Part shown: positions 3,605 through 54,522 of the stretch, in pieces | Numbering within the stretch: the stretch's first letter is position 1 | How the letters are laid out: each line of letters begins with the position of its first letter | DNA from: Dehalococcoidales bacterium | GTDB lineage: Bacteria > Chloroflexota > Dehalococcoidia > Dehalococcoidales > BS750m-G39 | Direction of reading: 5' to 3' | NCBI GenBank assembly: GCA_034419075.1 | Contig: DAOULR010000022.1 | Coordinates: 2,598 to 66,597, forward strand | Length of the DNA stretch: 64,000 nt | Notes under the pieces: generated by a model | Databases searched by the model: none | What the model was told of the DNA's origin: nothing | The model's input: the letters and a program-made list of their open reading frames with translations, nothing else | Program-made: the position numbers and the translations under genes

Positions 3605-5173
3605 ATGGTTATAACCGAGTTTCTTGACCTTTCCGCCCTGCTCGTCCCCGAGAGGACGGTCATCGCCTTTGAGGGCAGGCGCTACAGCTACGCCCAGCTT
3701 AGGGAGAGGGTAAACCGCCTGGCCGATTCGCTAAATAAAATAGGCCTGGAAAAGGGAGACCGGGCAGCCATCCTGGAGGTCAACTGCAATGAATATGTGG
3801 AGGCCTGTTTTGGGGTGGTGAAGGCGGGTGGTATCTTTGTGCCCTTAAACTTCCGCATCAGGGAGGACGAGCTGATATATCTGGTCAATAAAGCCGAGCC
3901 CAAAATTCTCTTCGTCGGCAGCCGCTACGCTGATATGGTAAATAGCGTCTGTTCTAAACTGTCCTCGGTGGAGCATTTGGTTATCATCGGGGGCAAGCAT
4001 GAGGAAATATCAAGCTATGATGAGCTTATTGCCTCCGGTTCGGCGGAAGACAAGACCTTTGCCGAGCTAAAAGATGAGGATGTGGCCATGCTTATCTTCA
4101 CTGCCGGGACTACTGGCTTCCCCAAGGGAGTTCCCCAGGACCACAATGCCTACAGCACCTATGTACTGACCAATGTTGACCCCCCCGATATGGAGGCGCC
4201 GCCGGAAACCAACGTTCTGGTAATGCCCCTCTACCACGTGGCCGGGATGCAGGCACTGATGGCGGCTATCTATGGGGGCCGGACTATTGCTTTGATGCGG
4301 CAGTTTGACGAAAAAGAGTGGTTCGAGACAGTGCAGCGGGAGAAGGCCACCCGGGTGATGGTGGTGCCGACCATGCTCAAGCGCATCGTGGACTACCCCG
4401 ACTTGGCTAAATACGACTTCTCCAGCGTGCGGGTAATAACCTATGGCGCCGCCGCCTGTCCCTACGAGGTTTTAAAGAAGACTATTGAGCGCTTTCCGGG
4501 GCGGGCGCTGATAAACGCCTTCGGCGGGACGGAGACCTCTTCCACCATAGCCGCCCTGAGGGCCGAAGACCAGGTAATCACTGGGAAAGAGACCGAGGCG
4601 GGGAGAGAGAAGAAGCTAAAGCGTCTGGCGACTTCTATCGGCTTGCCAATGGATGACGTTGAAATCCAGGTCAGGGATGAAAAAGGCCAGGAATTGCCCC
4701 CTGAGCAGCTAGGGGAAATCGTGGTGCGGGGGCCGAGGATAATGAAGGGCTACTGGAAGGATGAGGAGAGGACGGAGAAGGCCTTTACCGCCGACGGCTG
4801 GTACCGCACCGGAGACATGGGCTATAAGGACGAGGAGGGTTATATCTACCTTGCCGGACGGGGTGACGACGTTATCGTTCGGGGTGGTGAGAACATCGGC
4901 CCCGACGAGGTGGAGAGCGTCCTCTCCACCCACCCCAAAATTGAGGAGGCGGCCGTAATCGGAGTCAAGGATGTGGAATGGGGCCAGCAAGTGCGGGCTG
5001 TGGTCCGGCTCAAAGAAGGACAGACCGCCAGTGAGCAGGAGATAATTGATTTCTGCCGTACCCACCTGGCCAGCTTCAAGCGGCCTACCTCGGTGGTTTT
5101 TATTACCGGGGAGTTGCCTAAGACTGCCACCGGCAAAACCCTGCGGCGCGAGCTGCGCGAGAAGTACGGGTAG
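3605..5173 (+). CDS. AMP-dependent acyl-CoA synthetase/ligase
   Basis: 522 aa. AMP-binding motifs FTAGTTGFPKGV, GWYRTGDMG, RGGENIGPDEVE and C-terminal GKTLRREL. Confidence 0.85.
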   Translation: MVITEFLDLSALLVPERTVIAFEGRRYSYAQLRERVNRLADSLNKIGLEKGDRAAILEVNCNEYVEACFGVVKAGGIFVPLNFRIREDELIYLVNKAEPKILFVGSRYADMVNSVCSKLSSVEHLVIIGGKHEEISSYDELIASGSAEDKTFAELKDEDVAMLIFTAGTTGFPKGVPQDHNAYSTYVLTNVDPPDMEAPPETNVLVMPLYHVAGMQALMAAIYGGRTIALMRQFDEKEWFETVQREKATRVMVVPTMLKRIVDYPDLAKYDFSSVRVITYGAAACPYEVLKKTIERFPGRALINAFGGTETSSTIAALRAEDQVITGKETEAGREKKLKRLATSIGLPMDDVEIQVRDEKGQELPPEQLGEIVVRGPRIMKGYWKDEERTEKAFTADGWYRTGDMGYKDEEGYIYLAGRGDDVIVRGGENIGPDEVESVLSTHPKIEEAAVIGVKDVEWGQQVRAVVRLKEGQTASEQEIIDFCRTHLASFKRPTSVVFITGELPKTATGKTLRRELREKYG

Positions 5174-5309
5174 GCTTAAATTTTGTTCGGGCAGGCGACG
5201 GAGCTCAAAGACCACCGGGTTTTGGGCATCGGGGTAGGCAACGGTGGTTAATTCTAGGAAGGAGCGGCTTCACCAAAGTCCAATAAATGGAAGTATGACG
5301 TCTGAATAG

Positions 5310-5543
5310 AGAACTGAAATCCGGAGCTTTGTAAGAGAGGTCAGGGTAACCGGTGACGAAGCGACCCTGACTTACTCAATGCCTCTCCTACCGGAAAAAG
5401 TGGCTATTGAAAAAGAGAGAGTTCTACCTACCGTACAGTATGGTGGGCCTTGGTTGACAGTTCCCGAACTTTTCTTCGAGAAAAAACAACTGATTCCAGC
5501 TCTACAGCAGCTGATTTTGTCCTATAGTAGACCCACTGGTTAA
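5310..5543 (+). pseudogene. 3'-terminal remnant of a serine-recombinase-type gene (no start codon, about 77 codons)
   Basis: Open frame after TAG at 5307-5309. Translation ..FVREVRVTGDEATLTYSMPLLPEK..ERVLPTVQYGGPW.. parallels the C-terminus of the intact recombinase at 52880-54391 (..LYVKEGKVTKVELNSPF..SESVLSGGRYRT). Both share the TGGTGGGC string at the GG codons. Confidence 0.45.
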
Positions 5544-5575
5544 CTTTAGTCCATCTAAAGCATTTAGTCAACAAC
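5439..5575. repeat. 137-bp direct repeat, copy A (left of Pho regulon)
   Basis: Hand alignment with 13083-13219: no indels, 19 mismatches, first 47 nt identical. Confidence 0.9.
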
Positions 5576-5675
5576 AAAAGATGGATTGTTTAAGTCACTT
5601 TGTGGCGGATTGTTATATTGCTTATCTCGACATTTGATAGACCGCGTCTTTGGCTTTATACTATCATTAGAGCTA

Positions 5676-6359
5676 ATGGCCAAAATTCTGATTGTCGAAG
5701 ACGACCGCAACCTGCTGGACACCCTCAAATACAATCTGCGTAAAGAGGGCTACAGCGTAGTCACGGCTGTTGACGGCGCCGAGGCTCTTGATGTCGCCCG
5801 CCGGGAGAAGCCCGACCTCATCGTCCTCGACGTGATGCTCCCCAAGCTGAGCGGCTTCGAGGTCTGCCGCATCCTGCGGAAGGAGATGACCGTCCCCATC
5901 CTGATGCTTACCGCCAAGGACGAGGAAGTCGACAAGATAGTCGGGCTGGAGATTGGCGCCGATGATTATATGACCAAGCCCTTCAGTATGCGGGAGCTGC
6001 TGGCCCGCTTAAGTGCCATGCTGCGCCGGGCCGACATGGCGGTCCCGCCAGCTGAGGCAGAGTCCCTTAAGGTCGGCGAGCTGGAGATTGACGTTGCCCG
6101 TCACCAGGCTTTCCTCCGGGGCCAGCCCCTGGAGCTCAGCCCCAAAGAATTCGAGCTGCTCCTCTTCCTAGCCCGAAACAAGGGGTTTGTCTTCAACCGC
6201 GAACAGCTCTTGGATAAGGTTTGGGGCTATGACTACGCTGGTGAGACGCGGACGGTGGACGTCCATATACGGTGGCTGAGACAGAAAATCGAAACCGACC
6301 CCGCCAAACCCCGGTACCTGCTTACGGTGAGGGGGGCGGGTTACAAGCTGGAAGGCTAA
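5676..6359 (+). CDS. phoB: OmpR-family response regulator, phosphate regulon (PhoB/PhoP-like)
   Basis: Start moved to ATG 5676 ([10 protein letters not shown]). Receiver domain plus winged-helix output. Abuts the kinase gene and the pst operon. Confidence 0.85.
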
Positions 6360-6360
6360 T

Positions 6361-8097
6361 ATGTTCCGTAGCATTCAATGGCGCCTTACCTTTTTCTTCG
6401 TTCTACTCATCGTGGTCAGTATGGGCGCTCTCGGCGTCTATCTGGTCAGCTCTACCCGCAACTCCCAGCTCGACAGCCTGCGCTCTCAATTGGAGAACGA
6501 AGCCAAAATCACCGCCGAGGCCAGCCTGCCTGGATTTCTCGGTCAGGATGAAGACGCCGACCTTGACGCTCTGGCTAAGAGGCTGGGAGAAGAGATTGAC
6601 GCCCGTGTCACTATCATTGCGGTGGACGGGGTGGTGTTGGGCGATTCCGAGGAGGACCCCGCTTTCATGGAAAACCACGCCAACCGCCCCGAAGTCATTG
6701 ACGCCCTGGCGACGGGCGTTGGCGAGAGCACTCGCTACAGCGTTACCCTGGGGCAAGAGATGATGTATCTGGCCGTGCCCATCTCCTACCAGGGCGAAAT
6801 CTTGGGCATAGCCCGCGTCTCGCTGGCGCTGACCACTGTGGAAAGCCTGGCCCACCGGGTGACGTTGAGCATTATCATCGCCATGGCGATAGCCGCCGTG
6901 CTGGTCATTCTGGCCGCCTGGATTATCGCCCGCATCACCACCGGGCCGATAAGGGATCTTACCGCCGCCTCAAAAAGAATCGGCTCCGGGGAGCTGGGGC
7001 GGAAGATAACCATAGCCGCCAAGGACGAGGTGGGGGAACTGGCCCACGCCTTCAACGAAATGTCGGCCAGGCTTAAGGAATCGGTGGAGGAAATCTCCAA
7101 AGACAGGGCCAGGCTGGCTACCATCCTGGACAACATGGCCGACGGCGTCATTATGACCGACACCGAGGGCAATGTCTCGCTGGCTAACCAGACGGCGGAG
7201 AAGCTTTTTAGGGTTAAGGAAGTAGAGAATAAGCCGCTCATCGAGGCGGTGCGTGACCACGAGGTCGACGAGTTACTGAGGCTTTGCCTGAAAACAGGCC
7301 AGACGCAGGCCGTTAACTACGAGTCGGGCACGTCGAAACGCTACCTGCGGGCTATCGCTATCCCCATCGCTCATAGCGGCGTCCTTCTCCTCTTCCAGGA
7401 CCTCACCGAGCTTATAAAGCTGCAGACGACCCGGCGCGAGCTTATCGGCAACATATCCCACGAGCTCAGAACGCCCCTGGCCGGTATCAAGGCCATGGTG
7501 GAAACACTGAGCGGCGGCGCTGTCGACGATAAAAAGGCAGCCCGCGACTTCCTTACCCGCATTGACGGCGAGGTGGAGCGTTTGACGCAGCTAGTGAGCG
7601 AGCTGACCGAGCTTTCCCGCATCGAGACGGGTAAAGCCGAGCTGAGGTTGGAACTGGTGAACCTGAACCAGCTAGCAGAGGAGGTTATCAGCCAGCTCAG
7701 CCCTCAGGCGGAGAGACAGAAGCTGACCCTAGGGAAAAAACTCGCCGCCAGGCTGCCCAAGGTCAACGCCGACCGGGCCCGGGTGCGTCAGGTAATCACC
7801 AACCTGGTGCACAACGCCATCAAGTTCACCCCCGAGGAAGGGAAGATAACCATTACCACCAGGGCGCTGGAAGGCACCGTCGGCGTTGACATCGCCGACA
7901 CCGGCATCGGCATCCCCGAAGCCGACCTGCCCCATGTCTTCGAGCGCTTCTATAAGGGGGACAGGGCCCGCTCGGGGGCGGGCACGGGCATGGGGCTGGC
8001 TATCGCCAAGCATGTCGTCGAGGCTCACGGCGGCAGAATTTGGGTGGAGAGCGAGGAGGGGAGGGGCTCTACCTTCAGCTTTAGCCTGCCGCTCTAA
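6361..8097 (+). CDS. phoR: Phosphate-sensing histidine kinase (PhoR-like)
   Basis: 578 aa. TM segments, HAMP/PAS-like region, H-box ISHELRTPL, HATPase G-boxes ([14 protein letters not shown]). Confidence 0.85.
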
Positions 8098-13295: not shown

Positions 13296-14852
13296 TTGGT
13301 GAAGCGGATAGCGGGAATCATTCTTATCCTTACTCTACTTTTATTACTAGGGGTGAGCTGTGATGGGAGTGAGTCTGAGCTCCCTTCTATTCCCGACACC
13401 ACGACCCCTGATACCACGGCTCCCGACACTACGGCACCCTCAATCACAAATGTCTCGGCAGAGAGTATTACCGAATTTACTGCCACCATCAGCTGGACAA
13501 CTGATGAGCCGGCCACCAGCCAGGTGGAGTACGGCACAACCACTGCTTATGGCCTGACTACTCCTTTAGACAGTGAATTGGTTACAAGCCATAGTATTAG
13601 CCTAACAGGGCTTGACCCGGGCAGCACTCATCACTTCATTGCGAAATCAGAAGACCTCGCTGGGAACGAAGCGATCTCAGACGACTATACCTTTATTACC
13701 ATTACAGGCGTGCTTGACCAGCTTGTGGTTCATTTCATTGATGTGGGCCAGGGCGATGCTATTCTAATCGACTACGGCACCAATGAAATGTTGATTGACG
13801 GCGGGAGATGGGGAGACTGTGCCGCCTATGTGCCGAGCTACATTGACGGCGCCCTGGAAGTGATGGTGGCCACTCACCCGGATGCGGACCATATAGGAGG
13901 TCTTGATGATATACTAGATATTTTCGACGTAGAGAATATATGGCTTAACGGAGACACAGCTTCCACTCAGACCTACACTGACTTCATGGCCAAAGTAAAT
14001 GCTGAGGGTGCACAGGTGCATCAGGCACAAAGAGGAGAGCAGATTAGCCTCGGCGACTTGACATTTGACGTTCTGTATCCCACGCTACCCTTGGGCTCCG
14101 ACAAAAATGAGAACTCTATAGTGCTGGAACTGGCCTTTGGCCAGATCGATTTCTTATTCACCGGCGATGTTGAAAGCGGTGGAGAAGCTAGTATGCTGGC
14201 AGCCGGTCTAATTGACGACATCGACATCCTGAAGGTGAGTCACCACGGCTCTAAGTACTGCTCAACCGCGAATTTTCTTGCCGCTGCACAGCCTGAAATA
14301 GCCATCTATTCTGCCGGAGCGAATAATACCTATGGGCATCCGGCTCCTGAGACGATCACGCGCTTATGCGATATTGGGGCAATCATCTATGGGACTGATG
14401 TCCATGGAACCATTGTGGTGACGACCAATGGAACAACTTACGATGTATATCCATCGAACGACGTGCCCCCGGTAGATTGCTCAATTTCGAGCGATATTAC
14501 TCATGACCCCACCATCAATGTTGGTAATAATGTGCAGATCACCAACATCTTCTATGACGGCCTCGTTTACCGCACAGAGTCCGATGAATATGTAGAGATC
14601 ACAAACCTCGGAAGCGAACCTCAGGACTTGGCTGGTTGGGTTTTAAAAGATATATCTGATGATGGTCCCTCATTTACCTTTCCCTCTTATGTCTTAGACC
14701 CGGGTGAAAAGACACGGGTTTACACGAATGAAATTCATGAAGGCTGCTTTAGTTTTGAGTATGGTCAAGCGATTTGGCAAAATGATCCCCCTCATGATGT
14801 CGCCGCACTATTTAATGAACATGGCATAGAAGTATCCAGAATGAGCTACTAG
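13296..14852 (+). CDS. Secreted FN3 / ComEC-type metallo-beta-lactamase / lamin-tail-domain protein (possible extracellular nuclease)
   Basis: 518 aa. Signal peptide, PDTT(T/A) repeat linker, FN3-like segment. MBL motifs DVGQGDAILI, HPDADHIGG, SHHGS. C-terminal LTD-like VEITNLGSEPQDLAGWVLKD. Confidence 0.7.
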   Translation: MVKRIAGIILILTLLLLLGVSCDGSESELPSIPDTTTPDTTAPDTTAPSITNVSAESITEFTATISWTTDEPATSQVEYGTTTAYGLTTPLDSELVTSHSISLTGLDPGSTHHFIAKSEDLAGNEAISDDYTFITITGVLDQLVVHFIDVGQGDAILIDYGTNEMLIDGGRWGDCAAYVPSYIDGALEVMVATHPDADHIGGLDDILDIFDVENIWLNGDTASTQTYTDFMAKVNAEGAQVHQAQRGEQISLGDLTFDVLYPTLPLGSDKNENSIVLELAFGQIDFLFTGDVESGGEASMLAAGLIDDIDILKVSHHGSKYCSTANFLAAAQPEIAIYSAGANNTYGHPAPETITRLCDIGAIIYGTDVHGTIVVTTNGTTYDVYPSNDVPPVDCSISSDITHDPTINVGNNVQITNIFYDGLVYRTESDEYVEITNLGSEPQDLAGWVLKDISDDGPSFTFPSYVLDPGEKTRVYTNEIHEGCFSFEYGQAIWQNDPPHDVAALFNEHGIEVSRMSY

Positions 14853-17233: not shown

Positions 17234-18028
17234 CTACTCGAGTTCACTTTGACTTCGTATTTTCTTCATAATTGACCGTCGCCCCAAGTAAAAATTGGTA
17301 GCACTGCTGTCAGCATTCCGAGCTTTCTCAAGCACTTCTTGAATTTTTTGTTGGTCGGCTCCTTCCTTTTCCAGTCTATACGCCTCATGTAAGTAGGGCA
17401 GAGCCGGGCTCAATTCATCTGGAAAGGGAGTTTTAATTGAATCTTCGAATACTCTCTGCCAATCATGACGGGCGTAAGATCTGGTAACTTCACCGCCTTG
17501 TCGGTAATTAACTACGTCTCTGGAGGATTGTAGTCGCCTCCCTGCAGGTGAGCTAGGCCTATCTGAAGGTACTTCAACTGATTGTTCCAGAGTTGTGTTT
17601 TCTAGTTCCCCTTTTCCTTCAATTACCCAACCACTCGGAACATAATCGGGCGGTATTTGGTATGCCTCGTCAGAGATGCGAACCCACAACACCCTCGATA
17701 TTTTAAATGTTCTCTGCGCACTTCGATAGTGACAATAGGCATCAAAATATTCGCTCCCGAGACCGTAAATGTTGATATCCCTCACTTTTATCGCTGGTTC
17801 CCCAGGCATTGGGTTGCCAGTTTCATACTCCATCGTTACACGAAGCTTTCTTGTGTATCCTAATCGGAGTAACTCAATTGTTTTGCTCTTTGTAACCTGA
17901 GCTTTGCCGGAGAATTCGGCAGTAGTCAGGTGACGAGATGCGTTTTGAGAAGGTCTTCTTCTTTGACTAAGCCAAATCACTAGAGTTACGAGGGCAACTA
18001 ATAGAATGACAATCCAACCCATTTCCAA
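17234..18028 (-). CDS. Membrane-anchored WYL-like domain protein
   Basis: N-terminal TM helix (GWIVILLVALVTLVIWL). Core ..VRDINIYGLGSEYFDAYCHYRSAQRTFKISRVLWVRI.. resembles the WYL domain (aromatic-x-L...RxFrxxRI). Likely ATG start at 18022. Confidence 0.6.
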   Translation of the reverse strand: MEMGWIVILLVALVTLVIWLSQRRRPSQNASRHLTTAEFSGKAQVTKSKTIELLRLGYTRKLRVTMEYETGNPMPGEPAIKVRDINIYGLGSEYFDAYCHYRSAQRTFKISRVLWVRISDEAYQIPPDYVPSGWVIEGKGELENTTLEQSVEVPSDRPSSPAGRRLQSSRDVVNYRQGGEVTRSYARHDWQRVFEDSIKTPFPDELSPALPYLHEAYRLEKEGADQQKIQEVLEKARNADSSATNFYLGRRSIMKKIRSQSELE

Positions 18029-18042
18029 TTATCTCCATTGCC

Positions 18043-21000
18043 TCAAAGAGGGCGAGTGTACCGACATTGGTTCTCTGTGTCCTTGTATCCAGAGCACCCT
18101 AAAAATACTCCTCTTCGGCCCCACCTAATTTCCATCTCTCTTCCGCATTTCGGACAAATCGTAGCATCTGGAATTAGAGCTTGTTTAAGGTCTTCTCGCT
18201 TCACATTTGCAGTTGAATTACACCTTTCACACTTGTAGAATGGCCCAAATCTCCCTCGTGGTATAACCTTCATTTTATGGCCACAATTGCTGCACAATCT
18301 TGAGGGAACCTTGCTCGGATTGATAGCTGGGGATAAACTGTCACCAGCCTCCCCCGGCATTTGCAGCCCACACTCATCCATGACCTGTTTGGTGAAATCT
18401 TCATTCTCCAGACGAAACATAAGTTCCTGCGTGTTCTTGTGCGAGAGCGCGTTTAGGCTGCCGAACCAGACCAGTCGGCCATCTACGACTATCACCTTCT
18501 GGTGCATTGAGGATCGCTGAATTACTTTGGCTCCAATCTGTTCAAGGTAGTTGAGCATTTTCTGGATTTCGCCATGGTCTGCGGTCCCTTGTTGATGAGG
18601 CGGGCGTGTTACTAATTCCACATTGATGCCTTTCTCCACCTTTGCTCTGAGTAAATCAACATATGTGCTGAGGCGATTCTTTGTGATAAATGGGCTCATA
18701 ATAATGATATATCGCCCGGAATTTTCCAAATCGTATCGGAGCCCAGAATGAAAATCATCCTCTGTCCAAAACGAACTAACCGCGCTGCTCTTTTCTTTTA
18801 AAGGCCAGAGTGTTTCCCGTGCTTGCCGTACCGCTTGGTCAGCGTAACCTGGCACCAGTTGGTCAGCCGCAAATGTTGGAAGTGGGGTAGATTCATCGAA
18901 TAGCACCTTGCTTAGTGACCACTCCCTATTTAATCGGGATTGTAGAAATGACAGGTTAGCAATGATAGCCAGCTTCTTTTTAGCTCGGCTGCAAGCAACA
19001 TTGATTAGACGTGCACCTGCTGAATCATCGACGTCTTCGGAATCTATCTTACCTTTAAGGAGCTTACCTATACGAAGACCTGTGCTATCTACGAGGTCGC
19101 ATATTATTAGTTCACGTTCACTACCTTGGAAACGGTGGACATTTGAGACCGTTACTTTATCTTTCAGTAATGAATCAATTTCTACCAAGGCCTTTATTAG
19201 ACGTGTCTGGGCTTTGTAAGGCGTTATTATTCCGATATCGGTGAAATTTCGAATCGCACTTTGGCATAGTTTTACTGCCAGAACAGCGTGGTAAAGATTA
19301 AATCTCGAATAACTACTGGTCCAGCTGCACCACGGGTCTATTGCAGATGTATCATACACACCAACACATGTGCCAGGACAGGGTTGGTATGATCTTACTC
19401 TAGGTTCCCCAGAAATGCCGTCTCGTAACTTGTCATTATAGAAAACGCTACTCACTATGGCTCTTATCTCTGGCTGCATCCTATATTGAGTTCTTAGCAT
19501 TACCATCGGGGAGTTCCCCATCTGCTCAAGTTCCGATTCTTTATCTATGCCTGCAGCCACATATATATCTCTACGCAACCACTCTTTAACTCTGCTATCA
19601 TCGCTCAAGGCTATAGGTGCCAATTGGCGGAAGTCGCCAGCAATGGTGATAGACCTCGTGGCCAAACTACACACCCAGTAGAGTGCCGGTATCCCGGCCA
19701 TACTGGCCTCGTCACAAACAATGGTGTCAAATTGCCTACCATATACCTCGTTCATGGTGCATGTTCTGGCAAGCGTAGTTGCTATTAACACCGCCTCATC
19801 TATTATCTGCTGCCTCATTTCTTCGATTTGCCACTCCAACTCAGTTATTTGGGTACGCAAATCTTCAATTTTTGCCCGTATGCCGGCAATCTCGCCTTCG
19901 AGAGTATCAGGTAATAAGGATTCCTGCTTTAGCTTACCCTCAATTTCGTTTACTTCAACGCGAAGTCTATTCAGTTTGCTTGTTGATTCCTTGAGATTTC
20001 CCTCCACTTTAGATTTTTGTTCAATCAACTCATTACGTTTTACCGCTAGATTGGAAATAGAGTATTCTATTCTGCTAATCGACATTCCTCTAAGGAACCT
20101 CGCGATACCTGACATCGCCTTTGTTTTCTGAAGACGGTTTTCTTCCTGCTCAAACTTCCCCGTTACACCAGATATCTTATCTCGTAAAGCCTCTATGGAA
20201 CTTTCCAACTCAGTATGAGAAGCCTCTTCTTGAGCAATTAGCTTTTTCGATGCTTCCCATTTCTCCAGTTGGCTTCTGAGTGCCTGTAATGTCGTAAGTC
20301 TGGTCTCCGTGTCGGTCAATTGCGCACGTAACTCAGAAAGTTGCTCTCTTAAAGGCCCACTCTTTCGCTCCGTGATTTTATCAAGATTGAGATTATCATC
20401 ATCTCCAATTTCTGAGATTTGAGGCGTGCCGAGCCTTAGGATACGCCCTTCTCGATAATGTTCGGTTTCCTGCAGCGGCTTCAAACAAGCTATCAGTGCC
20501 TGATCGATGGCAACGTTGGTATTAGCAGTGAGCAAAACACTCCGTCCGCACTGTATCATGCTTGCTACAGCAACTCCTACAGTGGTAGTCTTTCCAGTGC
20601 CTGGAGGACCCCATATATAACAAATCTCGCTCCCCAGGGCTTGTCGAATGGCTTTTTGCTGGTCTTCATTTAGTTTACCCCATTGCTCTTGTAGGTTTTG
20701 CCCTGGAATGAAAGACTCATTGATTTGGTATTGGAATTGTTTGCGTCTCAAGCATTTTTCGGCGATTATACAAGAAGCATCCTGTAAGGTATCAAGGCGT
20801 TCCGACAAACGTTCGAGAAGGTAATATGGCTGTGCTAGTATACGAGCTGACGGGACATACTCTCCCAGATCACTTTCTATCGCAACTAATATCTGGTTTC
20901 CTGAAACTCCAACAATATGGCCAGATGCGTCTGAGCTCGCTGTACGTACTAATACCGGAGTTTCATCAAAGGCGCCTGATAGAGTTGGGTCATCTAAGAT

Positions 21001-21135
21001 GAAGCTATATACGTATAGCGGTCCCCTTACCTCGACAAGCCTCCCGGCACGTACATCCCACCTAGCGGCGCCCTTTTTCTTCTGTTCCTCTATTTCAACT
21101 GCAAGGGCGTTTTTAAATTCGTTGATTATGCTCAA
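18043..21135 (-). CDS. SF1 (Upf1/DNA2-like) helicase with coiled-coil insert, C-terminal PLD-family nuclease domain and two topoisomerase-type Zn ribbons
   Basis: 1030 aa. Walker A GPPGTGKTT, DEASM, ~200-aa heptad-rich insert, HQKVIVVD...GSLN (HxK-x4-D PLD motif), CxxC...CxxC ribbons at the C-terminus. Confidence 0.85.
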   Translation of the reverse strand: MSIINEFKNALAVEIEEQKKKGAARWDVRAGRLVEVRGPLYVYSFILDDPTLSGAFDETPVLVRTASSDASGHIVGVSGNQILVAIESDLGEYVPSARILAQPYYLLERLSERLDTLQDASCIIAEKCLRRKQFQYQINESFIPGQNLQEQWGKLNEDQQKAIRQALGSEICYIWGPPGTGKTTTVGVAVASMIQCGRSVLLTANTNVAIDQALIACLKPLQETEHYREGRILRLGTPQISEIGDDDNLNLDKITERKSGPLREQLSELRAQLTDTETRLTTLQALRSQLEKWEASKKLIAQEEASHTELESSIEALRDKISGVTGKFEQEENRLQKTKAMSGIARFLRGMSISRIEYSISNLAVKRNELIEQKSKVEGNLKESTSKLNRLRVEVNEIEGKLKQESLLPDTLEGEIAGIRAKIEDLRTQITELEWQIEEMRQQIIDEAVLIATTLARTCTMNEVYGRQFDTIVCDEASMAGIPALYWVCSLATRSITIAGDFRQLAPIALSDDSRVKEWLRRDIYVAAGIDKESELEQMGNSPMVMLRTQYRMQPEIRAIVSSVFYNDKLRDGISGEPRVRSYQPCPGTCVGVYDTSAIDPWCSWTSSYSRFNLYHAVLAVKLCQSAIRNFTDIGIITPYKAQTRLIKALVEIDSLLKDKVTVSNVHRFQGSERELIICDLVDSTGLRIGKLLKGKIDSEDVDDSAGARLINVACSRAKKKLAIIANLSFLQSRLNREWSLSKVLFDESTPLPTFAADQLVPGYADQAVRQARETLWPLKEKSSAVSSFWTEDDFHSGLRYDLENSGRYIIIMSPFITKNRLSTYVDLLRAKVEKGINVELVTRPPHQQGTADHGEIQKMLNYLEQIGAKVIQRSSMHQKVIVVDGRLVWFGSLNALSHKNTQELMFRLENEDFTKQVMDECGLQMPGEAGDSLSPAINPSKVPSRLCSNCGHKMKVIPRGRFGPFYKCERCNSTANVKREDLKQALIPDATICPKCGREMEIRWGRRGVFLGCSGYKDTENQCRYTRPL

Positions 21136-21141
21136 TGCTGA

Positions 21142-24100
21142 TTACTCCACCGGCCACCCCGGTATCAATTCGTCAATCTCCGTCATCAACCGGATGGTCT
21201 CCTTAAGCGCTACAATGACCTTCTGATAGTGTGCAGAGTCATCGTAGGTCAATATCCTGCCCTTGCGGTCTTTGAGCCATTTCTGAGCAACTTGGTAGCC
21301 GCCGACGTGGAAATCCCAAACTTCTGCCGGCACACCTTCGAAGTACTGTGACTTGTTGATATTGACACGCCGGTTGTTGTCATCGTAGCTTACCTTTTCA
21401 ACCTCGTCGGAGCCGGTGACAGGATAGCGCGTGATGGGCTCACCCAGCGCAGGCGATTCCATGAGGTGCAGGGCTACCAGCTCGGCGCCCTTTGCCGCCA
21501 GCGCCTTGAACAGTTTTTTATCCGAGGTGAGCGGCAAGCGCGGGAAGTCTATCTTTAGAAACTCTGCATACCGGCTGCGGTAGGTAGGCGAGTGGAAGAC
21601 GGCGTAGGCGTAGTTGAAGATATCTTCCGGGCCAAAGGTTTCCTTAAGGTCTCCCCGGCCATCTTCAACAAATTTCAACCCCAGCTTCTCTTGAACAGCC
21701 TTGATGAACTCCGGGTTTAGATTGGGACGGCGTTTACCGCCTTCAAACTGCATCTCGCCTTTGGTGGAGTAAAGGTATAGTGGAAAGAGATAATCTTGCC
21801 CCTTGTTACCGAGATAAAAGGTACCGTGACAATTAGGATGTTCAGAGACCCCGAAATACGAATATTCTCCGCCAACTGTCTGTCGCATGGTGATTAATCC
21901 AAGGTTTTCTCTATTAATAAAATGGGACATTATTTCTGAGCGTGGTCGCCCGAGAAATCCGCTGCTTTTGCCTGTAAAATACGTCCAGCGGAAATCGAAG
22001 GGTCGGTACAAAATAGGGACGACACTCTCTTGCTTAATACCAAAATTCTGGAGATCCCTTTTTGCACTATTGATAGTCCAACCTGAAGTGTCGGGACCGA
22101 GATCAAAGTGCTCACGCGCATCTTCACTATCAAGGTCTGAAAATTTCTTTACCACCTTCAGCATTGTGTCGGCATCATCTTGTATTGCTAACTTATCTTT
22201 TTTCGTTTGAATACCAGAACTATATTGGATGAATACCTTGTTGATTACCGGATAGTAATTATATTCATCGTGAGTTGTGTCATCCATAGGGCAGAAGTAG
22301 AAATATGGCGAATTAACGTTAAGAGCTTCCCATTCGGTGGATTGAATAGAATTTGACTCAAGATACTCATATTTTTCTTCTTTGGGCCCAAACAATTCAT
22401 AATATTTAACACTACAGTCTTTTTCGGATGCTCCGACACTATCGGTTTTCACCATCAATATTATTGTGACTCCCTGTTGGATTGCGAAAACATTTTCATC
22501 AGTGACGTCAGCGGGTACTGATCTAGATGCCATAGTACTTCCATGTAAATTAAGTATATAAATCGAATTAAACGTGTTATACAATGAATATCGCATAACC
22601 CTGCTTGCTATCCCGTCAAGGAAGGAATTATTAATAATAAATCCTATAATACCCTTCCCAGTTTTTTCTATACGCCAATCTGCAAATCTGAGGAATTTCC
22701 ATTCTTCTCTATTGAGGTCGAACTTCTTTTCAGTCAAACCTTCTTTATATTTTTCCAAGAGATCCATAATCCACGCGCCTTCAAAAATGGAGCTTGAATA
22801 CGGCGGGTTGCCCAGTACCACCATTATCGGCTCATCTTTCTTAATCCGGGCGGCGGCGTTGGATTCCTCGGTTATCCACTGGGCAAACAGAGTTTCGGAG
22901 TGCTTGATTGCCTCCTCTAGCGTGTTGGTAAGATAAATACCCAGGCGCTGGTCGCTCTGGAACTCGTAGCCCGTCTCCTGCAGCAAGAGCCCGAGCTTGA
23001 GGTGAGCCACGGCGTAAGGTGCCATAAGCAGCTCGAAGCCGAAGATGCGGGGCAGTAGCTTCTTGGCCACATAGTTATTCCACATCCCTTCCTGACCCGT
23101 GAAAGACTGACGAATCTCGTTAACTACCATGTACAGGAAGGTGGCCGTACCCACCGCCGGGTCAAGGATGAGCGCCTTATCATCAGCCAGCCCTTGCGGT
23201 TTGTTGAAGCGGGTCTTCAGTAGGTGGTCGATTGAGCGGACAATGTAGCTGACTACCGGCTCCGGCGTGTAGTAAACGCCGCGCATCTCCCGTACCTTGG
23301 AGTCATAAGCAGTCAGGAAGGTCTCGTAGAAATGCACCACCGGGTCTTCCTTGCCGCTGTGCTTGCCGAAGTCTTTAAGAACCGCCTCCATATTCGCCTG
23401 GTCTAATACCTGTGCTAGGTCGTCGACCAGCCAGGCGATGCGGTCATCAAGGTCAGGTCCGGCGATGTTATTGAAAAGCTTGCGCAGGAACGGGTTTGTC
23501 TTCGGCAGGAGATAGGCGGCATTCTGGCGGGTAAAGTTCTTTTCCTCCGGGTGCGTGCACCGGGCGGCAAACAGGCCGTAGACGATGGTCTGAGCATACA
23601 TGTCGGCAAACTGCCCTGCAGAGAGGTCGGGAATTAGGTTATCGCGAAATGCCGCTAGCTGCACATGGAGATTACCACTTTTCGGCTCTTTCTCAAAGGC
23701 GTTGACGATAAGCTCTCTAATCATGTGTGCCAGGCGAGCCATTCGTAGCGCCAGTTCTTTCGGTGTGCCAACAGCCTCGGCTTTGTGAGCGAGAAAATTA
23801 CCAAGCAGCTCGACAACTGACTGAGCTCCATTGCTGTCGCGCTTGACTTTGCCATCTTTAGTTAGCGTGCCCAAACGTGCCGAAAATCGACGTTTGCCGT
23901 CTACATACCAGCGGAATTCGAGGTAATCAGTCAAGATGAGGTTGGTGAGCGGAGCAAGGTAACGCTTGAATCTTTCCCCGTCCGGCCCTTTCCCGCGCTC
24001 AATATCGTCCAGGCTCTTACCAACATCCTTGGCCTCTATATAGCCAACTTTAAGAGCACCCTTGGTAACCAGAAAGTCAGGGGCACCACATGCAATTCGT

Positions 24101-24267
24101 CGAGGCTCGTTGGTGGCGGTGATTCCCTCAGCCAGACTCTCCACCAGAGCTTCCAGCGCAGAGCGGTGGGTATGCTCGGTAGAATCGCCGGTGGCGAGTT
24201 TCCTCTCAATGGAATGTATGTAGTTTTGCACTAGCTTCACGTTATTTGTTATTTCTTCTCGGTTCAT
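21142..24267 (-). CDS. Type IIG-like restriction-modification enzyme (PD-ExK nuclease + gamma-class N6-adenine methyltransferase + C-terminal specificity region)
   Basis: 1041 aa. N-terminal GAPDF..x12..GYIEAKD (PD...ExK), motif I LDPAVGTATFL, motif IV GNPPY. The C-terminal VWDFHVGGYQVAQKWLKDRKGR block is known from type ISP/YeeA-like enzymes. Confidence 0.8.
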   Translation of the reverse strand: MNREEITNNVKLVQNYIHSIERKLATGDSTEHTHRSALEALVESLAEGITATNEPRRIACGAPDFLVTKGALKVGYIEAKDVGKSLDDIERGKGPDGERFKRYLAPLTNLILTDYLEFRWYVDGKRRFSARLGTLTKDGKVKRDSNGAQSVVELLGNFLAHKAEAVGTPKELALRMARLAHMIRELIVNAFEKEPKSGNLHVQLAAFRDNLIPDLSAGQFADMYAQTIVYGLFAARCTHPEEKNFTRQNAAYLLPKTNPFLRKLFNNIAGPDLDDRIAWLVDDLAQVLDQANMEAVLKDFGKHSGKEDPVVHFYETFLTAYDSKVREMRGVYYTPEPVVSYIVRSIDHLLKTRFNKPQGLADDKALILDPAVGTATFLYMVVNEIRQSFTGQEGMWNNYVAKKLLPRIFGFELLMAPYAVAHLKLGLLLQETGYEFQSDQRLGIYLTNTLEEAIKHSETLFAQWITEESNAAARIKKDEPIMVVLGNPPYSSSIFEGAWIMDLLEKYKEGLTEKKFDLNREEWKFLRFADWRIEKTGKGIIGFIINNSFLDGIASRVMRYSLYNTFNSIYILNLHGSTMASRSVPADVTDENVFAIQQGVTIILMVKTDSVGASEKDCSVKYYELFGPKEEKYEYLESNSIQSTEWEALNVNSPYFYFCPMDDTTHDEYNYYPVINKVFIQYSSGIQTKKDKLAIQDDADTMLKVVKKFSDLDSEDAREHFDLGPDTSGWTINSAKRDLQNFGIKQESVVPILYRPFDFRWTYFTGKSSGFLGRPRSEIMSHFINRENLGLITMRQTVGGEYSYFGVSEHPNCHGTFYLGNKGQDYLFPLYLYSTKGEMQFEGGKRRPNLNPEFIKAVQEKLGLKFVEDGRGDLKETFGPEDIFNYAYAVFHSPTYRSRYAEFLKIDFPRLPLTSDKKLFKALAAKGAELVALHLMESPALGEPITRYPVTGSDEVEKVSYDDNNRRVNINKSQYFEGVPAEVWDFHVGGYQVAQKWLKDRKGRILTYDDSAHYQKVIVALKETIRLMTEIDELIPGWPVE

Positions 24268-24272
24268 ATAGA

Positions 24273-24713
24273 CTACTCACTAATACCTAAAATAGCGGCC
24301 GCTTTTTCTATGAACCTCTCCGCTGAAGCAATAACCGCCTTCGCTCCAGATTGAGAAAAATTAGCTTCGTAATCGGCCGCTTCACGAAGATTCATGGCAT
24401 TTAGGAAGTCACGAACTGACTGGGCTTCCATTGTGCCCTCGTCTACAAATAGCGCTCCCAAAGCTACCGCCAGACAGTAATGGCTCTTCTCGCGGTATCC
24501 CTGAGAATAAACAAGTGCTCTGGCGGCATGGAACATGGCATAGTAGGCTTGTATAGTCGACCACTTATAGCGTCCATTTTCATAGCCTGCTTTTGCATCC
24601 GACAGGTCACTTCTGGCTACTGACAACTCCTTCTTAACCAGGTTTTTACCCCTGGCGAAGGAAACTATCTTCTTATTCTCAAGACACTGCTTAAACTCTC
24701 GATTCACTGGCAA
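24273..24713 (-). CDS. HEPN domain protein (toxin-like partner of MNT)
   Basis: 146 aa helical protein. Overlaps the upstream nucleotidyltransferase gene by 23 nt, the classic MNT-HEPN arrangement. Confidence 0.7.
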   Translation of the reverse strand: MPVNREFKQCLENKKIVSFARGKNLVKKELSVARSDLSDAKAGYENGRYKWSTIQAYYAMFHAARALVYSQGYREKSHYCLAVALGALFVDEGTMEAQSVRDFLNAMNLREAADYEANFSQSGAKAVIASAERFIEKAAAILGISE

Positions 24714-25257
24714 CTCTTTCCCATAGCACGATGCCGCGTTCGACTTCTTCCATGAAAGCCCGTTCTGATTCCTCCCCCTCTAACAGCTCGACAGGCGTCT
24801 TAATTACTGATTGAATATGAATATCCTCGTATCCCCTCGGGAATTTGAACTTACTAATAGTATTTGACACGCTTTCCCTGTGGTTCGATACCACGAATAA
24901 ATCGAGATCACTCTCAGAGGTATCTGTCCCTAAGGCACAGCTGCCGTATAACACTATGCGGTTTGATATCTTCTTTAGCTCTTCTACCAATGGTTCAATA
25001 AGCATGAGGTTTATCATTTTCTTTAACTCGATGACAGCAGAAGCCGAGGAATCAATCGAATAGAAAAACATCTTGCCTTCCCGGCGGCGGGTGACAGCAC
25101 CGGTCGAATAAAGCTCATTCAGCGTCCGGTTTGCTGATCCTGAAGATATTCCAAGCTTACGAACCAATTCTCGTTCATAGAATTCTTGGTCTGAGAATTT
25201 CGCCAGCAGGCCCAGCACTTTCTGGTTGCTTGTAGCGATTAGATGTGGTTTCAACAT
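24691..25257 (-). CDS. Minimal nucleotidyltransferase (MNT) with N-terminal winged-helix domain
   Basis: 188 aa. LYGSCALGTDTSESDLDLFVV matches GSxxxGxxxxxSDxDL. Confidence 0.8.
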   Translation of the reverse strand: MLKPHLIATSNQKVLGLLAKFSDQEFYERELVRKLGISSGSANRTLNELYSTGAVTRRREGKMFFYSIDSSASAVIELKKMINLMLIEPLVEELKKISNRIVLYGSCALGTDTSESDLDLFVVSNHRESVSNTISKFKFPRGYEDIHIQSVIKTPVELLEGEESERAFMEEVERGIVLWERVASESRV

Positions 25258-47730: not shown

Positions 47731-48128
47731 CCCGTTGCTCCTTCTCTTTCCCGCTTCTCAACGCCGGTGACCGTGGCCCCGGCCAGCTTCTTGGCCTCGT
47801 GAATCAGCTTCAAGGTGCTGTCGTCAACCTCGAGGAGATACTCCAGCTCCTGCTCGAGATACGTGGGATAGCCGGCGGGAAAGCCGCCGACGAGCTCGTC
47901 TCTCAGGACGACTACCACCTCGTCGCCCAGGGCGCGGCAACGCCAGAGGCACCAGCCCCTTGTTGCCAGCAGCTCGCTTGTGCTAGCCTTCTCCTGCGCC
48001 CGGCGCAGCTCCTCCTCAAGCCCGGCCAGCTCCTCTTCCCACGAGTCAGTAGCCATCCCCTTCGCCCTGGCCAGGGCTATGGCCCTCCTGCCCCTCTCTA
48101 TGCGCGAGTTAATGTCCCGACTCTTCAC
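47727..48128 (-). CDS. Hypothetical protein (~133 aa)
   Basis: GTG 48128 chosen. The longer track ORF (to 48419) overlaps the primase-helicase gene in another frame. Confidence 0.4.
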   Translation of the reverse strand: MKSRDINSRIERGRRAIALARAKGMATDSWEEELAGLEEELRRAQEKASTSELLATRGWCLWRCRALGDEVVVVLRDELVGGFPAGYPTYLEQELEYLLEVDDSTLKLIHEAKKLAGATVTGVEKREREGATG

Positions 48129-50325
48129 TTGCCACCTCGTCGAGAAAGTCGTCCCAGGGGTCTTTTGCTTCCCTATCCCCGGGAAGTCCGTCATTACCGT
48201 CACAACCGCCACCGCCAGATATGGAGCCAGCTTGTGACGGTTTTTCCGGGCTCTCCAAACCGTCACCCTCTTCCCTGTCTGGCAGTGACAGTAATGACGG
48301 TTGTGACGGTTTCTCCTGGGATAGAGGGGTTTGCGCCAGCCCGTAAAGAGAGGCCAGCTGCCTGACCCGGTTCTCGTCCCAGCGGATAAACCTCGACTTC
48401 GAGGTCCGCTCCTTTCCAAAACCCAGCTTCTTGGTCATCCAGCCCACCTTCTCCGAGGTCAGCGCCGGGGCGTCGTTATCCATCTCATTGACCTTGTCGG
48501 TTATATTCCTTATGGTGAGCTCGGCGCCCTCGCCGTGCAGCTCGATAATGGCCGCCAGCACCCTGCCCAAGGCGCTCTCGCGGCGCCTTGAGAAAAGCGT
48601 CTCCTGGAGCCGGTGGATGAAGGCGCTGAGGCTCTCGGCCATGGCCCGGTCGCCGTTGACCATCGCCTTGAGCGGAATCAGGATCTCCTGCAGCCTGGGC
48701 TGGAGGTTCGGCTCGAGAAGGTCGTTGCCGAAGGTCCTGCCCTTGAGCTTGAGCAGGTTGGCCAGCCTGAAGGTGAGCAGCTTCGAGCGCAGCTGTTTGA
48801 CCTCGGTGTCAAACGACGGCGGCAGCACCCTGGGGATGTCCGGCCTGGTCAAGGGCATCATCTCGGCGGTGAGGCACCGGCTCTCCAGGGCTTCGTCCTT
48901 GAAGGTGGAGCGCGTGGCGATGAGCTTGGGGCCGAAGACCTGGTAGCCGTGGGGGTACCACTTGCCGTCCTCCTTGTCCGACCTTAGCACGGGGAAGTTG
49001 GGGCGGTAGCCGTTGTTCAGTATCTTGACCATCTCTACCCAGGCCGAGGAGTCCTTGAAGTCGGCCTCGTCGAGGACCAGCGTCCCCTGGAACTTGTCCA
49101 GGATGCGGAAGATGGGAGACGGGGTAGTTGCCCCCGAGGCGAAGATGGGTCGAAAGCAAACTCTTCCCACGACGTCCAGAAACCTGGTCTTGCCGGAGCC
49201 CCAGTCGCCGATGACCCTCAGGTAGGGAATGGAGGGGGCAAACTCGTAGACCCAGGTCAGCAGCACGTACAGGGCGGCGATGTCCTCGAAATCGGCAGGG
49301 AGCTCAATATACTGGTGGATGAAAGCCTTGGCCTCACCGAACAGGGTGGCCTGGGAGTCGTAGGGCGCGGCGGTGGCGGCGAAATGCACCACCTGGCCCA
49401 CCAGGGGGTCGCCTGTTGGTATATAGGTAACCCTGCCGGTCTGGTACTGAAGCACCTTCCTCACCGACCCGCCCACCAGCACGATGAATGACCGTTCCCC
49501 GGCGTCGCTCACTATCATCTCGCCCACAGTTCCGTCAGGAAGAATAAAGCCCGATACGCTCCGCTCAATGGTCCGGCTCTCCTCGCCGTCAAGCTCCCCC
49601 GCCAGCTGCCGGGCGTCCTCCAAGGAATGCTCCAGGAGGTAATCGTCGATGCCCACCTTCCGGTCGCCCGGCTGGGGAAGACGAATCGCCAGGACGTTCG
49701 CCTCTCTGCGCCGGAGGTGCTCTGCAATGCGTCCGAGAGCTTTCCTGACCGGCTCCTTGGTGACGACATCCGAGTCGAAGGAAAGGTAAACGACGCGCTC
49801 CTTGAGGGCGATGTAGTCCCAGTCGGCAAGCAGGGTAACGCCGCCGAGCTCGTTTTTACCCTTGAACCCCCAGACGCCGGTGAGAGAAACGGAGCAGGCC
49901 CCGTGCGACGCCAGAGAGTCTGCCTTCTTGCTGCCCTCGGTCACCCACAGCGGAACTCTCGGGTCGCTGAGCATCTTCCGGCAGCGTGGAGGGCAGTCAA
50001 GCCTGTTGGCCGAACCCCTGGGAGACTCGTATTTCACCGGCCTGCCCCTGGCGTCAACCCGGGGATTATCGGGCCGGTATTGATAGCCAGCCTCCTTGCC
50101 GTCAACTCCCCAGAGAGGAATGAGGATGCCCGGGGTGCGCTGCTGCGCCGGGGTAAAGCCCAGCTCCTTGATCTCAGCTTTGCCCAGGAGACTCCGGTAA
50201 CCCCGCTCCCTGATCGCGTCGGCGCTTACGCCGCTTCCCTCCTGAAGGTGCCTCATGTGGCTTTCCAGGAGCTCAGGGATATCCTTTGAGAAAACATGGC
50301 CGGCTTCCTTTGACTCGGTGCTCAT
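48109..50325 (-). CDS. Primase-helicase-like replication protein (Toprim/DUF3854-like N-terminus + P-loop NTPase)
   Basis: 738 aa. PLWVTEGSKKADSL acidic Toprim-like segment, Walker A GDWGSGKT, Walker B LVLDEAD. Confidence 0.7.
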   Translation of the reverse strand: MSTESKEAGHVFSKDIPELLESHMRHLQEGSGVSADAIRERGYRSLLGKAEIKELGFTPAQQRTPGILIPLWGVDGKEAGYQYRPDNPRVDARGRPVKYESPRGSANRLDCPPRCRKMLSDPRVPLWVTEGSKKADSLASHGACSVSLTGVWGFKGKNELGGVTLLADWDYIALKERVVYLSFDSDVVTKEPVRKALGRIAEHLRRREANVLAIRLPQPGDRKVGIDDYLLEHSLEDARQLAGELDGEESRTIERSVSGFILPDGTVGEMIVSDAGERSFIVLVGGSVRKVLQYQTGRVTYIPTGDPLVGQVVHFAATAAPYDSQATLFGEAKAFIHQYIELPADFEDIAALYVLLTWVYEFAPSIPYLRVIGDWGSGKTRFLDVVGRVCFRPIFASGATTPSPIFRILDKFQGTLVLDEADFKDSSAWVEMVKILNNGYRPNFPVLRSDKEDGKWYPHGYQVFGPKLIATRSTFKDEALESRCLTAEMMPLTRPDIPRVLPPSFDTEVKQLRSKLLTFRLANLLKLKGRTFGNDLLEPNLQPRLQEILIPLKAMVNGDRAMAESLSAFIHRLQETLFSRRRESALGRVLAAIIELHGEGAELTIRNITDKVNEMDNDAPALTSEKVGWMTKKLGFGKERTSKSRFIRWDENRVRQLASLYGLAQTPLSQEKPSQPSLLSLPDREEGDGLESPEKPSQAGSISGGGGCDGNDGLPGDREAKDPWDDFLDEVASEESGH

Positions 50326-54446: not shown

Positions 54447-54522
54447 TGGTGGGCGGTACAGGACTTGAACCTGTCACCTCTTGCGTGTGAAGCAAGCGCT
54501 CTAACCACTGAGCTAACCGCCC
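54447..54522 (-). tRNA. tRNA-Val (anticodon CAC), CCA encoded
   Basis: Hand-folded cloverleaf. Acceptor GGGCGGT/ACCGCCC, D arm GCTC-AGTGGTTA-GAGC, anticodon arm CTTGC-TTCACAC-GCAAG, variable AGGTG, T arm ACAGG-TTCAAGT-CCTGT, then A-CCA. 76 nt. Confidence 0.9.

Follow-up and report, generated by a model that had tools for sequence, protein, structure and literature searches.

A Dehalococcoidales defence gene cluster that probably joins two mobile blocks, one of them a Mokosh-like helicase-nuclease with a WYL partner

A five-gene defence cluster

The window analysed here is the whole of a 64,000-nucleotide (nt) stretch of DNA from a Dehalococcoidales bacterium (NCBI GenBank assembly GCA_034419075.1, contig DAOULR010000022.1, positions 2,598 to 66,597 of the forward strand), and our subject is a run of five closely packed genes on its minus strand (Table 1). 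In order of reading they encode a minimal nucleotidyltransferase (MNT) with a winged helix-turn-helix (wHTH), a HEPN protein, a Type IIG restriction-modification (RM) enzyme, a helicase joined to a phospholipase D-type (PLD) nuclease and zinc ribbons (helicase-PLD, for short), and a small protein with a transmembrane (TM) helix and a WYL domain (TM-WYL). The cluster lies within a low-GC variable region, with a GC fraction of 0.47 as against 0.55-0.58 in the flanks. An initial annotation of this DNA had described the five genes as defence-type genes packed into one operon and had raised the idea of a composite system. We reproduced its coordinates exactly in a six-frame list of open reading frames (ORFs), its domain labels held for all five genes in scans of Pfam, PADLOC and NCBIfam (with structure deciding on the WYL domain of gene 5), and the domain and PADLOC matches bear out the defence-type character of the genes. 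PADLOC profiles were scored singly throughout, without system-level thresholds. Comparison with relatives points to a different organization from the one proposed, and we put the probability at about 0.7 that the cluster is a defence-island operon of two mobile blocks holding three functionally independent modules, recently spliced together, and not one composite system.

The spacing is as tight as had been stated, an overlap of MNT with HEPN followed by gaps of 5, 6 and 14 nt. The overlap amounts to 23 nt from a TTG start or 17 nt from a GTG start; 5 nt separate HEPN from the IIG gene and 6 nt the IIG gene from the helicase-PLD gene, whose ribosome-binding site sits within the final IIG codons. 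The gap of 14 nt before TM-WYL assumes a TTG start and becomes 20 nt with ATG 18022, which is the likely true start, since GGAG stands 10 nt upstream of it and the homologues and the database gene call begin with MGWIV.

Table 1. Features discussed in the text, in window coordinates (aa, amino acids; RiPP, ribosomally synthesized and post-translationally modified peptide)
Feature	Position	Strand	Remarks
MNT (gene 1), wHTH + minimal nucleotidyltransferase	25257-24691	minus	188 aa; predicted antitoxin
HEPN (gene 2)	24713-24273	minus	144-146 aa; predicted toxin
Type IIG RM enzyme (gene 3)	24267-21142	minus	1041 aa; single chain
Low-GC segment in IIG gene	22797-21787	minus	aa 491-827; begins just after NPPY
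Helicase-PLD-Zn ribbon protein (gene 4)	21135-18043	minus	1030 aa; Mokosh type II-like
TM-WYL protein (gene 5)	ORF 18028-17234; likely real gene 18022-17234	minus	262 aa from ATG 18022
Sigma-70-like promoter	25319-25291	minus	-35 TTGACT (25319-25314), 17-nt spacer, -10 TACAAT (25296-25291)
Inverted repeat GCTCA-N6-TGAGC	25302-25287	minus	across -10 hexamer
Graspetide-type RiPP cluster	17084-15325	minus	directly downstream of the defence genes
RiPP candidate precursor	17084-16878	minus	68 aa
ATP-grasp peptide maturase	16915-15935	minus	TIGR04187 2e-46; MvdC/MvdD-like
Protein in RiPP cluster	15942-15325	minus	205 aa; no family match
Protein with purple-acid-phosphatase-N, metallo-beta-lactamase and lamin-tail domains	13296-14852	plus	518 aa
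DUF3854 protein	48109-50325	minus	738 aa
tRNA-Val	54447-54522		sole tRNA of the window

Homology parts at the IIG stop codon

Homologues of the two large genes at the centre of the cluster keep separate company elsewhere. None of 81 loci that carry an IIG homologue at 49-89% identity (80 metagenomic loci at 49-66%, searched with tblastn for helicase-PLD and TM-WYL, and the relative L170) has either gene, and none of the helicase-PLD loci examined has an IIG homologue; the latter set comprises 10 metagenomic loci in three distinct contexts and 68 genome loci, most of them helicase-only relatives and only 12 of them with a match that reaches the PLD domain, so that the effective sample is smaller. 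The genes that flank the IIG homologues (68 upstream and 68 downstream, classified with Pfam) are a mixed group that includes DUF5677 (6/68), PIN (4/68), HEPN, ApeA, GmrSD and transposases; AAA_11/12 and PLDc_2 are not among the frequent families in this set. The initial annotation had taken the spacing to imply co-transcription and possibly functional coupling across the operon, a view that rare co-occurrence of the homologues would speak against, and rare co-occurrence is what we find for IIG and helicase-PLD. That part of the coupling is left unsupported, and the part that stands is the pairing of helicase-PLD with TM-WYL described below.

Alignments at the DNA level locate the break. The closest relative of the first three genes, L170 (88% nucleotide identity, with amino-acid identities of 94% for MNT, 96.5% for HEPN and 89% for IIG), aligns to window positions 24789-21142, and the syntenic locus L021 to 25375-22796 and 21787-21143. 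Both retain the MNT-HEPN pair, and in both the homology ends at the IIG stop codon, of which 21142 is the last base. Beyond it L170, which keeps the order MNT-HEPN-IIG, has an unrelated 272-aa ORF (3624-4439), and L021 has a DUF5677 gene (4770-5588). On the other side L001 and L007 align to window positions 21108-17168 only. Because these boundaries of homology are sharp, the window appears to join a segment consisting of promoter, MNT, HEPN and IIG to a segment consisting of helicase-PLD and TM-WYL at the 6-nt gap, a join that is seen only in the window and in the identical L011. The junction would then be a recent splice, which the 88%-identical relative without the helicase block makes datable, and the case is a caution against taking defence genes for one system on the strength of 5-6-nt gaps and a common promoter alone.

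Behind the IIG stop codon is a slot of variable content, occupied also in L040 (7625-8443) and L017 (8167-8847). DUF5677 is the commonest downstream neighbour of the IIG homologues (6/68), often overlapping the IIG stop codon. The downstream ORF of L170 was considered as a further DUF5677 gene and rejected, as BLASTP gave no similarity and Pfam and PADLOC gave no matches. The slot may yield further defence or accessory genes.

A conserved pair of helicase-PLD and TM-WYL

A TM-WYL family gene lies directly downstream of the helicase-PLD gene in 10/10 informative distinct contexts, namely the window, L001/2, L003-6, L007-10, L160-2, L165, L166, L167, L168 and L169 (L163/164 were left out as uninformative, their sequence ending 274 nt upstream). 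The paired helicase-PLD genes range from 26 to 86% identity to that of the window, and the spacing between the partners is 19-48 nt in most loci, with an overlap of the called genes in L166. The two functions are also found in one polypeptide, P0427 (1169 aa), which has an N-terminal WYL domain that matches the family profile, followed by AAA_11/AAA_12, PLDc_2 and Zn_ribbon_Top1, and which aligns end to end with the window helicase-PLD (33% identity, E 3e-158); its WYL domain is present without a TM helix. The neighbours of the pair vary from place to place; among them are AbiEi/AbiEii, Mrr, an integrase and genes for a phage capsid and a terminase. Upstream of the three closest relatives on long contigs (86%, 70% and 62% identity) are, respectively, a VWA gene, an unknown gene with Mrr, and AbiEi/AbiEii; there is no methyltransferase upstream of these three, nor an adjacent one in the other pair contexts for which upstream sequence is available. 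The relatives are mostly from metagenome-assembled genomes of Dehalococcoidia/Chloroflexota and Bathyarchaeia. Synteny and fusion together support the view that helicase-PLD and TM-WYL are a conserved functional pair.

WYL domains close to the TM-WYL family are fused to Upf1-like helicase-nucleases in other arrangements as well (P0427, P0395, P0409, P0422 and P0380), with the architectures WYL-helicase-PLD-Zn-ribbon, WYL-helicase-MTES_1575/DUF559 and DUF4011-helicase-MTES_1575-WYL (Hhe-like). In a Dehalococcoidia lineage (L160-L162, positions ~4998-7979) the helicase-PLD gene is called as two ORFs of 620 aa and 309-319 aa, which may reflect a frameshift or a pseudogene, and here the pair adjoins integrase, topA and dprA.

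The helicase-PLD protein combines AAA_11 (3e-30), AAA_12 (5e-31), PLDc_2 (3e-11, aa 803-920) and Zn_ribbon_Top1 in Pfam, and its three best PADLOC families are components of Mokosh: MkoA PDLC03920 (1.2e-55), MkoC PDLC03924 (1.4e-42, a partial match in two stretches of which the best spans aa 633-906 only) and MkoB (2e-11). It carries a Walker A motif, GPPGTGKT (176-183), a DEAS box (475-478) and the nuclease residues H878-x-K880-x4-D885 with GSLN (892-895); across 20 aligned homologues there is no variation in Walker A, DEAS or H878/K880/D885. The best sequence matches in the PDB are Upf1/NAM7, Dna2 and Ighmbp2, and an AlphaFold2 (AF2) model with a predicted local distance difference test (pLDDT) score of 85.9 retrieves Setx, Dna2, Upf1 and Ighmbp2 in Foldseek at E 1e-27 to 1e-30. 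In the model an N-terminal beta-barrel (24-101) precedes two RecA domains, split by a coiled-coil insertion of ~190 aa (260-447), and the PLD domain and the zinc ribbons follow, the C-terminal CxxC ribbons occupying aa 948-1029. More than 1,800 homologues of the same architecture occur in bacteria and archaea. A tblastn search of plasmids gave no full-length helicase-PLD relative and no genuine TM-WYL relative.

Type II Mokosh is described as a single gene whose product carries an Upf1-like (COG1112) helicase N-terminally and a PLD nuclease C-terminally, and Mokosh defence depends on the ATP-binding site as well as on the PLD active site (Millman et al. 2022); a 2025 preprint presents type II as a one-gene system whose protein is a monomer in vitro, and one type II Mokosh in it protected against a single-stranded DNA (ssDNA) phage only. 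By its domain architecture the window protein fits type II (MkoC), sharing the N-terminal Upf1-like superfamily 1 (SF1) helicase and C-terminal PLD domain of one polypeptide with intact Walker A, DEAS and HxKx4D motifs. It differs from type II in its topoisomerase-type zinc ribbons, its coiled-coil insertion and its N-terminal beta-barrel, and in having a conserved second gene, TM-WYL, so that it does not stand alone.

The Pfam match of TM-WYL to the WYL family is weak (E 0.007), and its assignment comes from structure. An AF2 model built with 45 homologues shows a TM helix (from aa 2 or 3 to 21) with an RRR patch, a disordered linker, a WYL barrel of a helix and five strands (aa 41-120, with pLDDT above 90 at residues 60-120), a second disordered linker and a four-helix domain (aa 184-261); the N-terminal helix is strongly hydrophobic (Kyte-Doolittle 2.59 over residues 1-19), and YFDAYCHYR and RTFKISRV are the signature motifs. 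The top Foldseek matches in the PDB are PafBC, BrxR, CapW and DriD (E 4e-05 to 1e-03, probability 1.0), and the model identifies gene 5 as a genuine WYL protein. With the WYL regulators BrxR, CapW, PafBC and DriD it shares the Sm-like barrel, the RxFxxxR[IV] motif and linkage to a defence gene; unlike them it has a TM helix in place of a DNA-binding helix-turn-helix (HTH). No HTH appears in the Pfam scan, the N-terminus being taken up by TM helix and linker, and so the protein would be unable to act as a classical WYL transcription factor. DriD, CapW and PafBC are known, from the titles of their PDB entries, to bind ssDNA through the WYL domain.

The TM-WYL family is small, with 25 clusters at E<=1e-30 and 96 at E<=1e-10 in a profile search of 1.84 billion representatives, and it occurs in three forms, TM-WYL-CTD (C-terminal domain), TM-WYL and TM-CTD. 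Apart from a generic WYL model, PADLOC v2 offers none for gene 5. A literature search gave nothing relevant on WYL proteins with Mokosh or on TM-anchored WYL proteins with helicase-PLD proteins; WYL fusions to SF1 helicases are mentioned in general terms only by Makarova et al. (2014). What appears modestly novel is thus a Mokosh-like helicase-nuclease that has a WYL partner of its own, anchored in the membrane and lacking an HTH, a combination backed by the synteny and the one gene fusion. The pair offers a testable handle on Mokosh, in that one clade has a dedicated WYL partner, separate or fused, and the partner suggests that a nucleic-acid ligand gives the activating signal and that the system acts at the membrane.

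The modules of the first block

The MNT protein matches NTP_transf_2 in Pfam (3e-08) and PADLOC PDC-M05A (1e-22); a MarR/TrmB-like wHTH occupies aa 8-70, and the catalytic motif GS-x9-SDLD (GSCALGTDTSESDLD) lies at aa 105-119. HEPN matches Pfam HEPN (2e-16) and PDC-M05B (2.5e-07). The overlapping genes, the intact GS...DxD motif and the matches to both PDC-M05 models liken the pair to the HEPN-MNT (type VII) toxin-antitoxin (TA) systems and to the PADLOC candidate PDC-M05. It differs from type VII systems in the additional N-terminal wHTH of the MNT protein, in the score of that protein against the NCBIfam MntA equivalog (25.6 bits, under the cut-off of 60), and in the HEPN protein, which is of the PF05168 type, its sequence showing no evident canonical Rx4-6H but R72-x3-H76 and R108-x4-Y113.

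The third gene encodes what, by its motifs, is a complete, self-sufficient enzyme of the MmeI/DrdV type ('IIL'). Pfam finds N6_Mtase (2e-12) and Type_ISP_C (6e-93, at aa 678-1029, the C-terminal specificity domain), and the PADLOC REase_MTase_IIG model scores 923 bits. The nuclease motif P63-D64...E78-A-K80 near the N-terminus aligns with the PD...ESK region of DrdV, and the methyltransferase motifs are DPAVGT (369-374) and NPPY (487-490). The nearest solved structures are DrdV 7LO5 (9e-38), LlaBIII and LlaGI. The name of the Pfam family Type_ISP_C suggests a Type ISP enzyme, and with LlaGI and LlaBIII the protein does have a methyltransferase and the Type_ISP_C specificity domain in common. 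We rejected this identity in favour of the MmeI/DrdV type because the SF2 translocase is absent, the Pfam scan giving no helicase/SF2 translocase domain; the alignment with LlaBIII spans LlaBIII residues 835-1522 only. In common with MmeI/DrdV-type enzymes the protein is a single chain of ~1,040 aa with a PD-ExK nuclease, a gamma-class N6-adenine methyltransferase (NPPY) and a C-terminal specificity domain, and it would need no external nuclease. The only point of difference from them is a specificity segment that has apparently been exchanged: aa 491-827 have a GC fraction of 0.39, versus 0.53-0.54 on both sides, and are the sole part of the gene without a DNA-level alignment to L021, so that this stretch looks like a swapped specificity segment.

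Signals for transcription

The promoter upstream of MNT has 10/12 matches to consensus, stands ~34 nt 5' of the MNT start and is kept in L021 as TTGACT-17-TATAAT. Both arms of the inverted repeat that straddles its -10 hexamer are likewise kept in L021, and the MNT protein's wHTH probably uses this repeat as its operator. Within the cluster, promoter-like matches are no commoner than in shuffled sequence (17 observed, 18.3 expected), and a scan of the minus strand from 25257 to 17234 gave no terminator-like site; in the 3' flank of TM-WYL the folding is no better than that of shuffles (z = -0.54), again with no terminator-like fold. The initial annotation's proposal that the five genes are co-transcribed is plausible in this light, since there is one promoter upstream of MNT and no terminator-like site inside the cluster, since gaps of 5-6 nt are too small for a promoter, and since the helicase block lacks the upstream region of its relatives.

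Proposed mechanism and alternatives

On the two-block explanation, block 1 (~25375-21142) would comprise its own promoter and probable operator, the wHTH-MNT/HEPN TA pair and the IIG enzyme, and block 2 (21135 to ~17168) the genes for helicase-PLD and its membrane-anchored WYL partner. In this lineage block 2 would have been inserted directly behind the IIG stop codon, and from that position it would be read through from the block 1 promoter; the wHTH-MNT protein would autoregulate this promoter, from which all five genes would be read. The IIG enzyme is predicted to methylate adenine in its own recognition site and to cut unmodified double-stranded DNA (dsDNA) with its N-terminal PD-ExK nuclease. 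The helicase-PLD protein would serve as an ATP-dependent effector that degrades phage nucleic acid, as in Mokosh, and TM-WYL would regulate or localise it at the membrane's inner face, presumably by physical interaction. By analogy with DriD, CapW and PafBC, the WYL domain may sense single-stranded nucleic acid, ssDNA or RNA being likely. Topoisomerase-type zinc ribbons bind ssDNA, and it is these ribbons, together with the ssDNA-binding WYL domains of the three regulators and the protection by one type II Mokosh against an ssDNA phage only, that suggest a single-stranded ligand. Since TM-CTD forms exist, the partner may serve mainly as an anchor, with WYL sensing added on. A more specific proposal, which we offer tentatively and hold to be less probable than the two-block structure itself, is that the pair forms a two-component, membrane-associated Mokosh-like branch, in which the HTH-less WYL sensor detects phage single-stranded nucleic acid (e.g., on genome entry) and licenses or recruits the helicase-nuclease. 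If so, this would be a post-translational use of a WYL domain, otherwise known mainly from transcription factors.

Several points weigh against this overall picture. Short contigs limit the sampling of IIG loci, 33/80 of the metagenomic ones having at least 3 kb downstream. Selection for joint expression could account for the tight packing and for the position of the helicase-PLD ribosome-binding site within the final IIG codons. Full-length helicase-PLD-Zn-ribbon relatives at ~30% identity (L092-L096 and L118) have no partner gene, so that the partner is not universally required; and the membrane anchor alone is common to all three forms of the TM-WYL family, a modularity that weakens the case for WYL sensing as the essential role.

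As first proposed, methylation by the IIG enzyme would mark self for the helicase-PLD protein, which would destroy unmarked DNA, in one composite five-gene system reminiscent of DISARM or yeeABC-type loci. The 5-6-nt gaps, the one promoter and the lack of internal terminators would suit such a system, the cluster, like DISARM, combines adenine methyltransferase, helicase and PLD domain, and the PLD domain has a weak DrmC-like match (8e-11), which is the sole DISARM-type match in PADLOC. But there is no match to DrmA or DrmB (DUF1998) among the 10 proteins of the region, the helicase is an Upf1-like SF1 enzyme, and the methyltransferase is part of a full RM enzyme with a nuclease motif of its own. 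Furthermore, co-occurrence is absent in both directions, the 88%-identical L170 lacks the helicase block, its homology stopping at the IIG stop codon, and the pair lives elsewhere without any methyltransferase in the contexts with upstream sequence. With neither DrmA/DrmB nor co-occurrence of the methyltransferase and helicase-PLD, a DISARM or yeeABC-type system was rejected, and we regard a composite system of any such kind as highly improbable. To judge from its relatives, the cluster appears to have brought known system types together recently and by chance. A milder alternative, possible but in our judgement rather doubtful, grants that the modules are independent and supposes that their fusion into one operon is adaptive, an autoregulated TA promoter giving layered or synergistic protection in which RM acts on unmodified dsDNA and the Mokosh-like pair on ssDNA or RNA intermediates or on modified phages. 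The tight junction with its ribosome-binding site kept is in keeping with this, as is a post-IIG slot in which three relatives carry three different cargo genes, and in E. coli the co-occurrence and co-localisation of Mokosh II and RM type IV are non-random and defence systems can synergise (bioRxiv 10.1101/2022.08.21.504612); that E. coli pairing, however, concerns type IV and not type IIG, and with the arrangement seen only here and in the identical L011 nothing indicates that selection maintains the junction.

Two further alternatives, both of which we judge quite unlikely, concern the pair. It might have no part in immunity and serve housekeeping or mobile-element DNA processing, such as the membrane-proximal handling of incoming or replicating ssDNA, a role that would agree with the topoisomerase-type zinc ribbons, with the location of the L160 pair beside topA and dprA, and with the control of DNA-damage responses by other WYL domains (PafBC, DriD). 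Its patchy distribution and variable neighbours argue otherwise, as do its company elsewhere (AbiE, Mrr, integrase and phage genes) and here (RM and TA), its best HMM matches, which are all to Mokosh components, and the split helicase gene of L160, which suggests that the gene is dispensable. The other possibility is that TM-WYL is neither sensor nor anchor and is instead an abortive-infection effector that damages the membrane once helicase-PLD activates it. Many defence systems employ small TM effectors, and the single N-terminal TM helix is the sole feature common to the three forms of the family; but one TM helix with soluble cytoplasmic domains and a positive-inside RRR patch resembles an anchor and not a pore-former, P0427 has the WYL domain and no TM helix, and the PLD nuclease, its HKD motif intact, is already an effector.

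Neighbouring genes in the window

Immediately beyond the defence genes lies the graspetide-type RiPP cluster of Table 1, made up of a candidate precursor, an ATP-grasp maturase and a third protein. The 518-aa protein on the plus strand has PADLOC matches to LmuA and RTasMBL-type models (5e-19 and 7e-14). The DUF3854 protein falls in a high-GC stretch (0.57-0.66) with many ORFs that have no family matches, and the block from 34 to 51 kb may be an integrated element.

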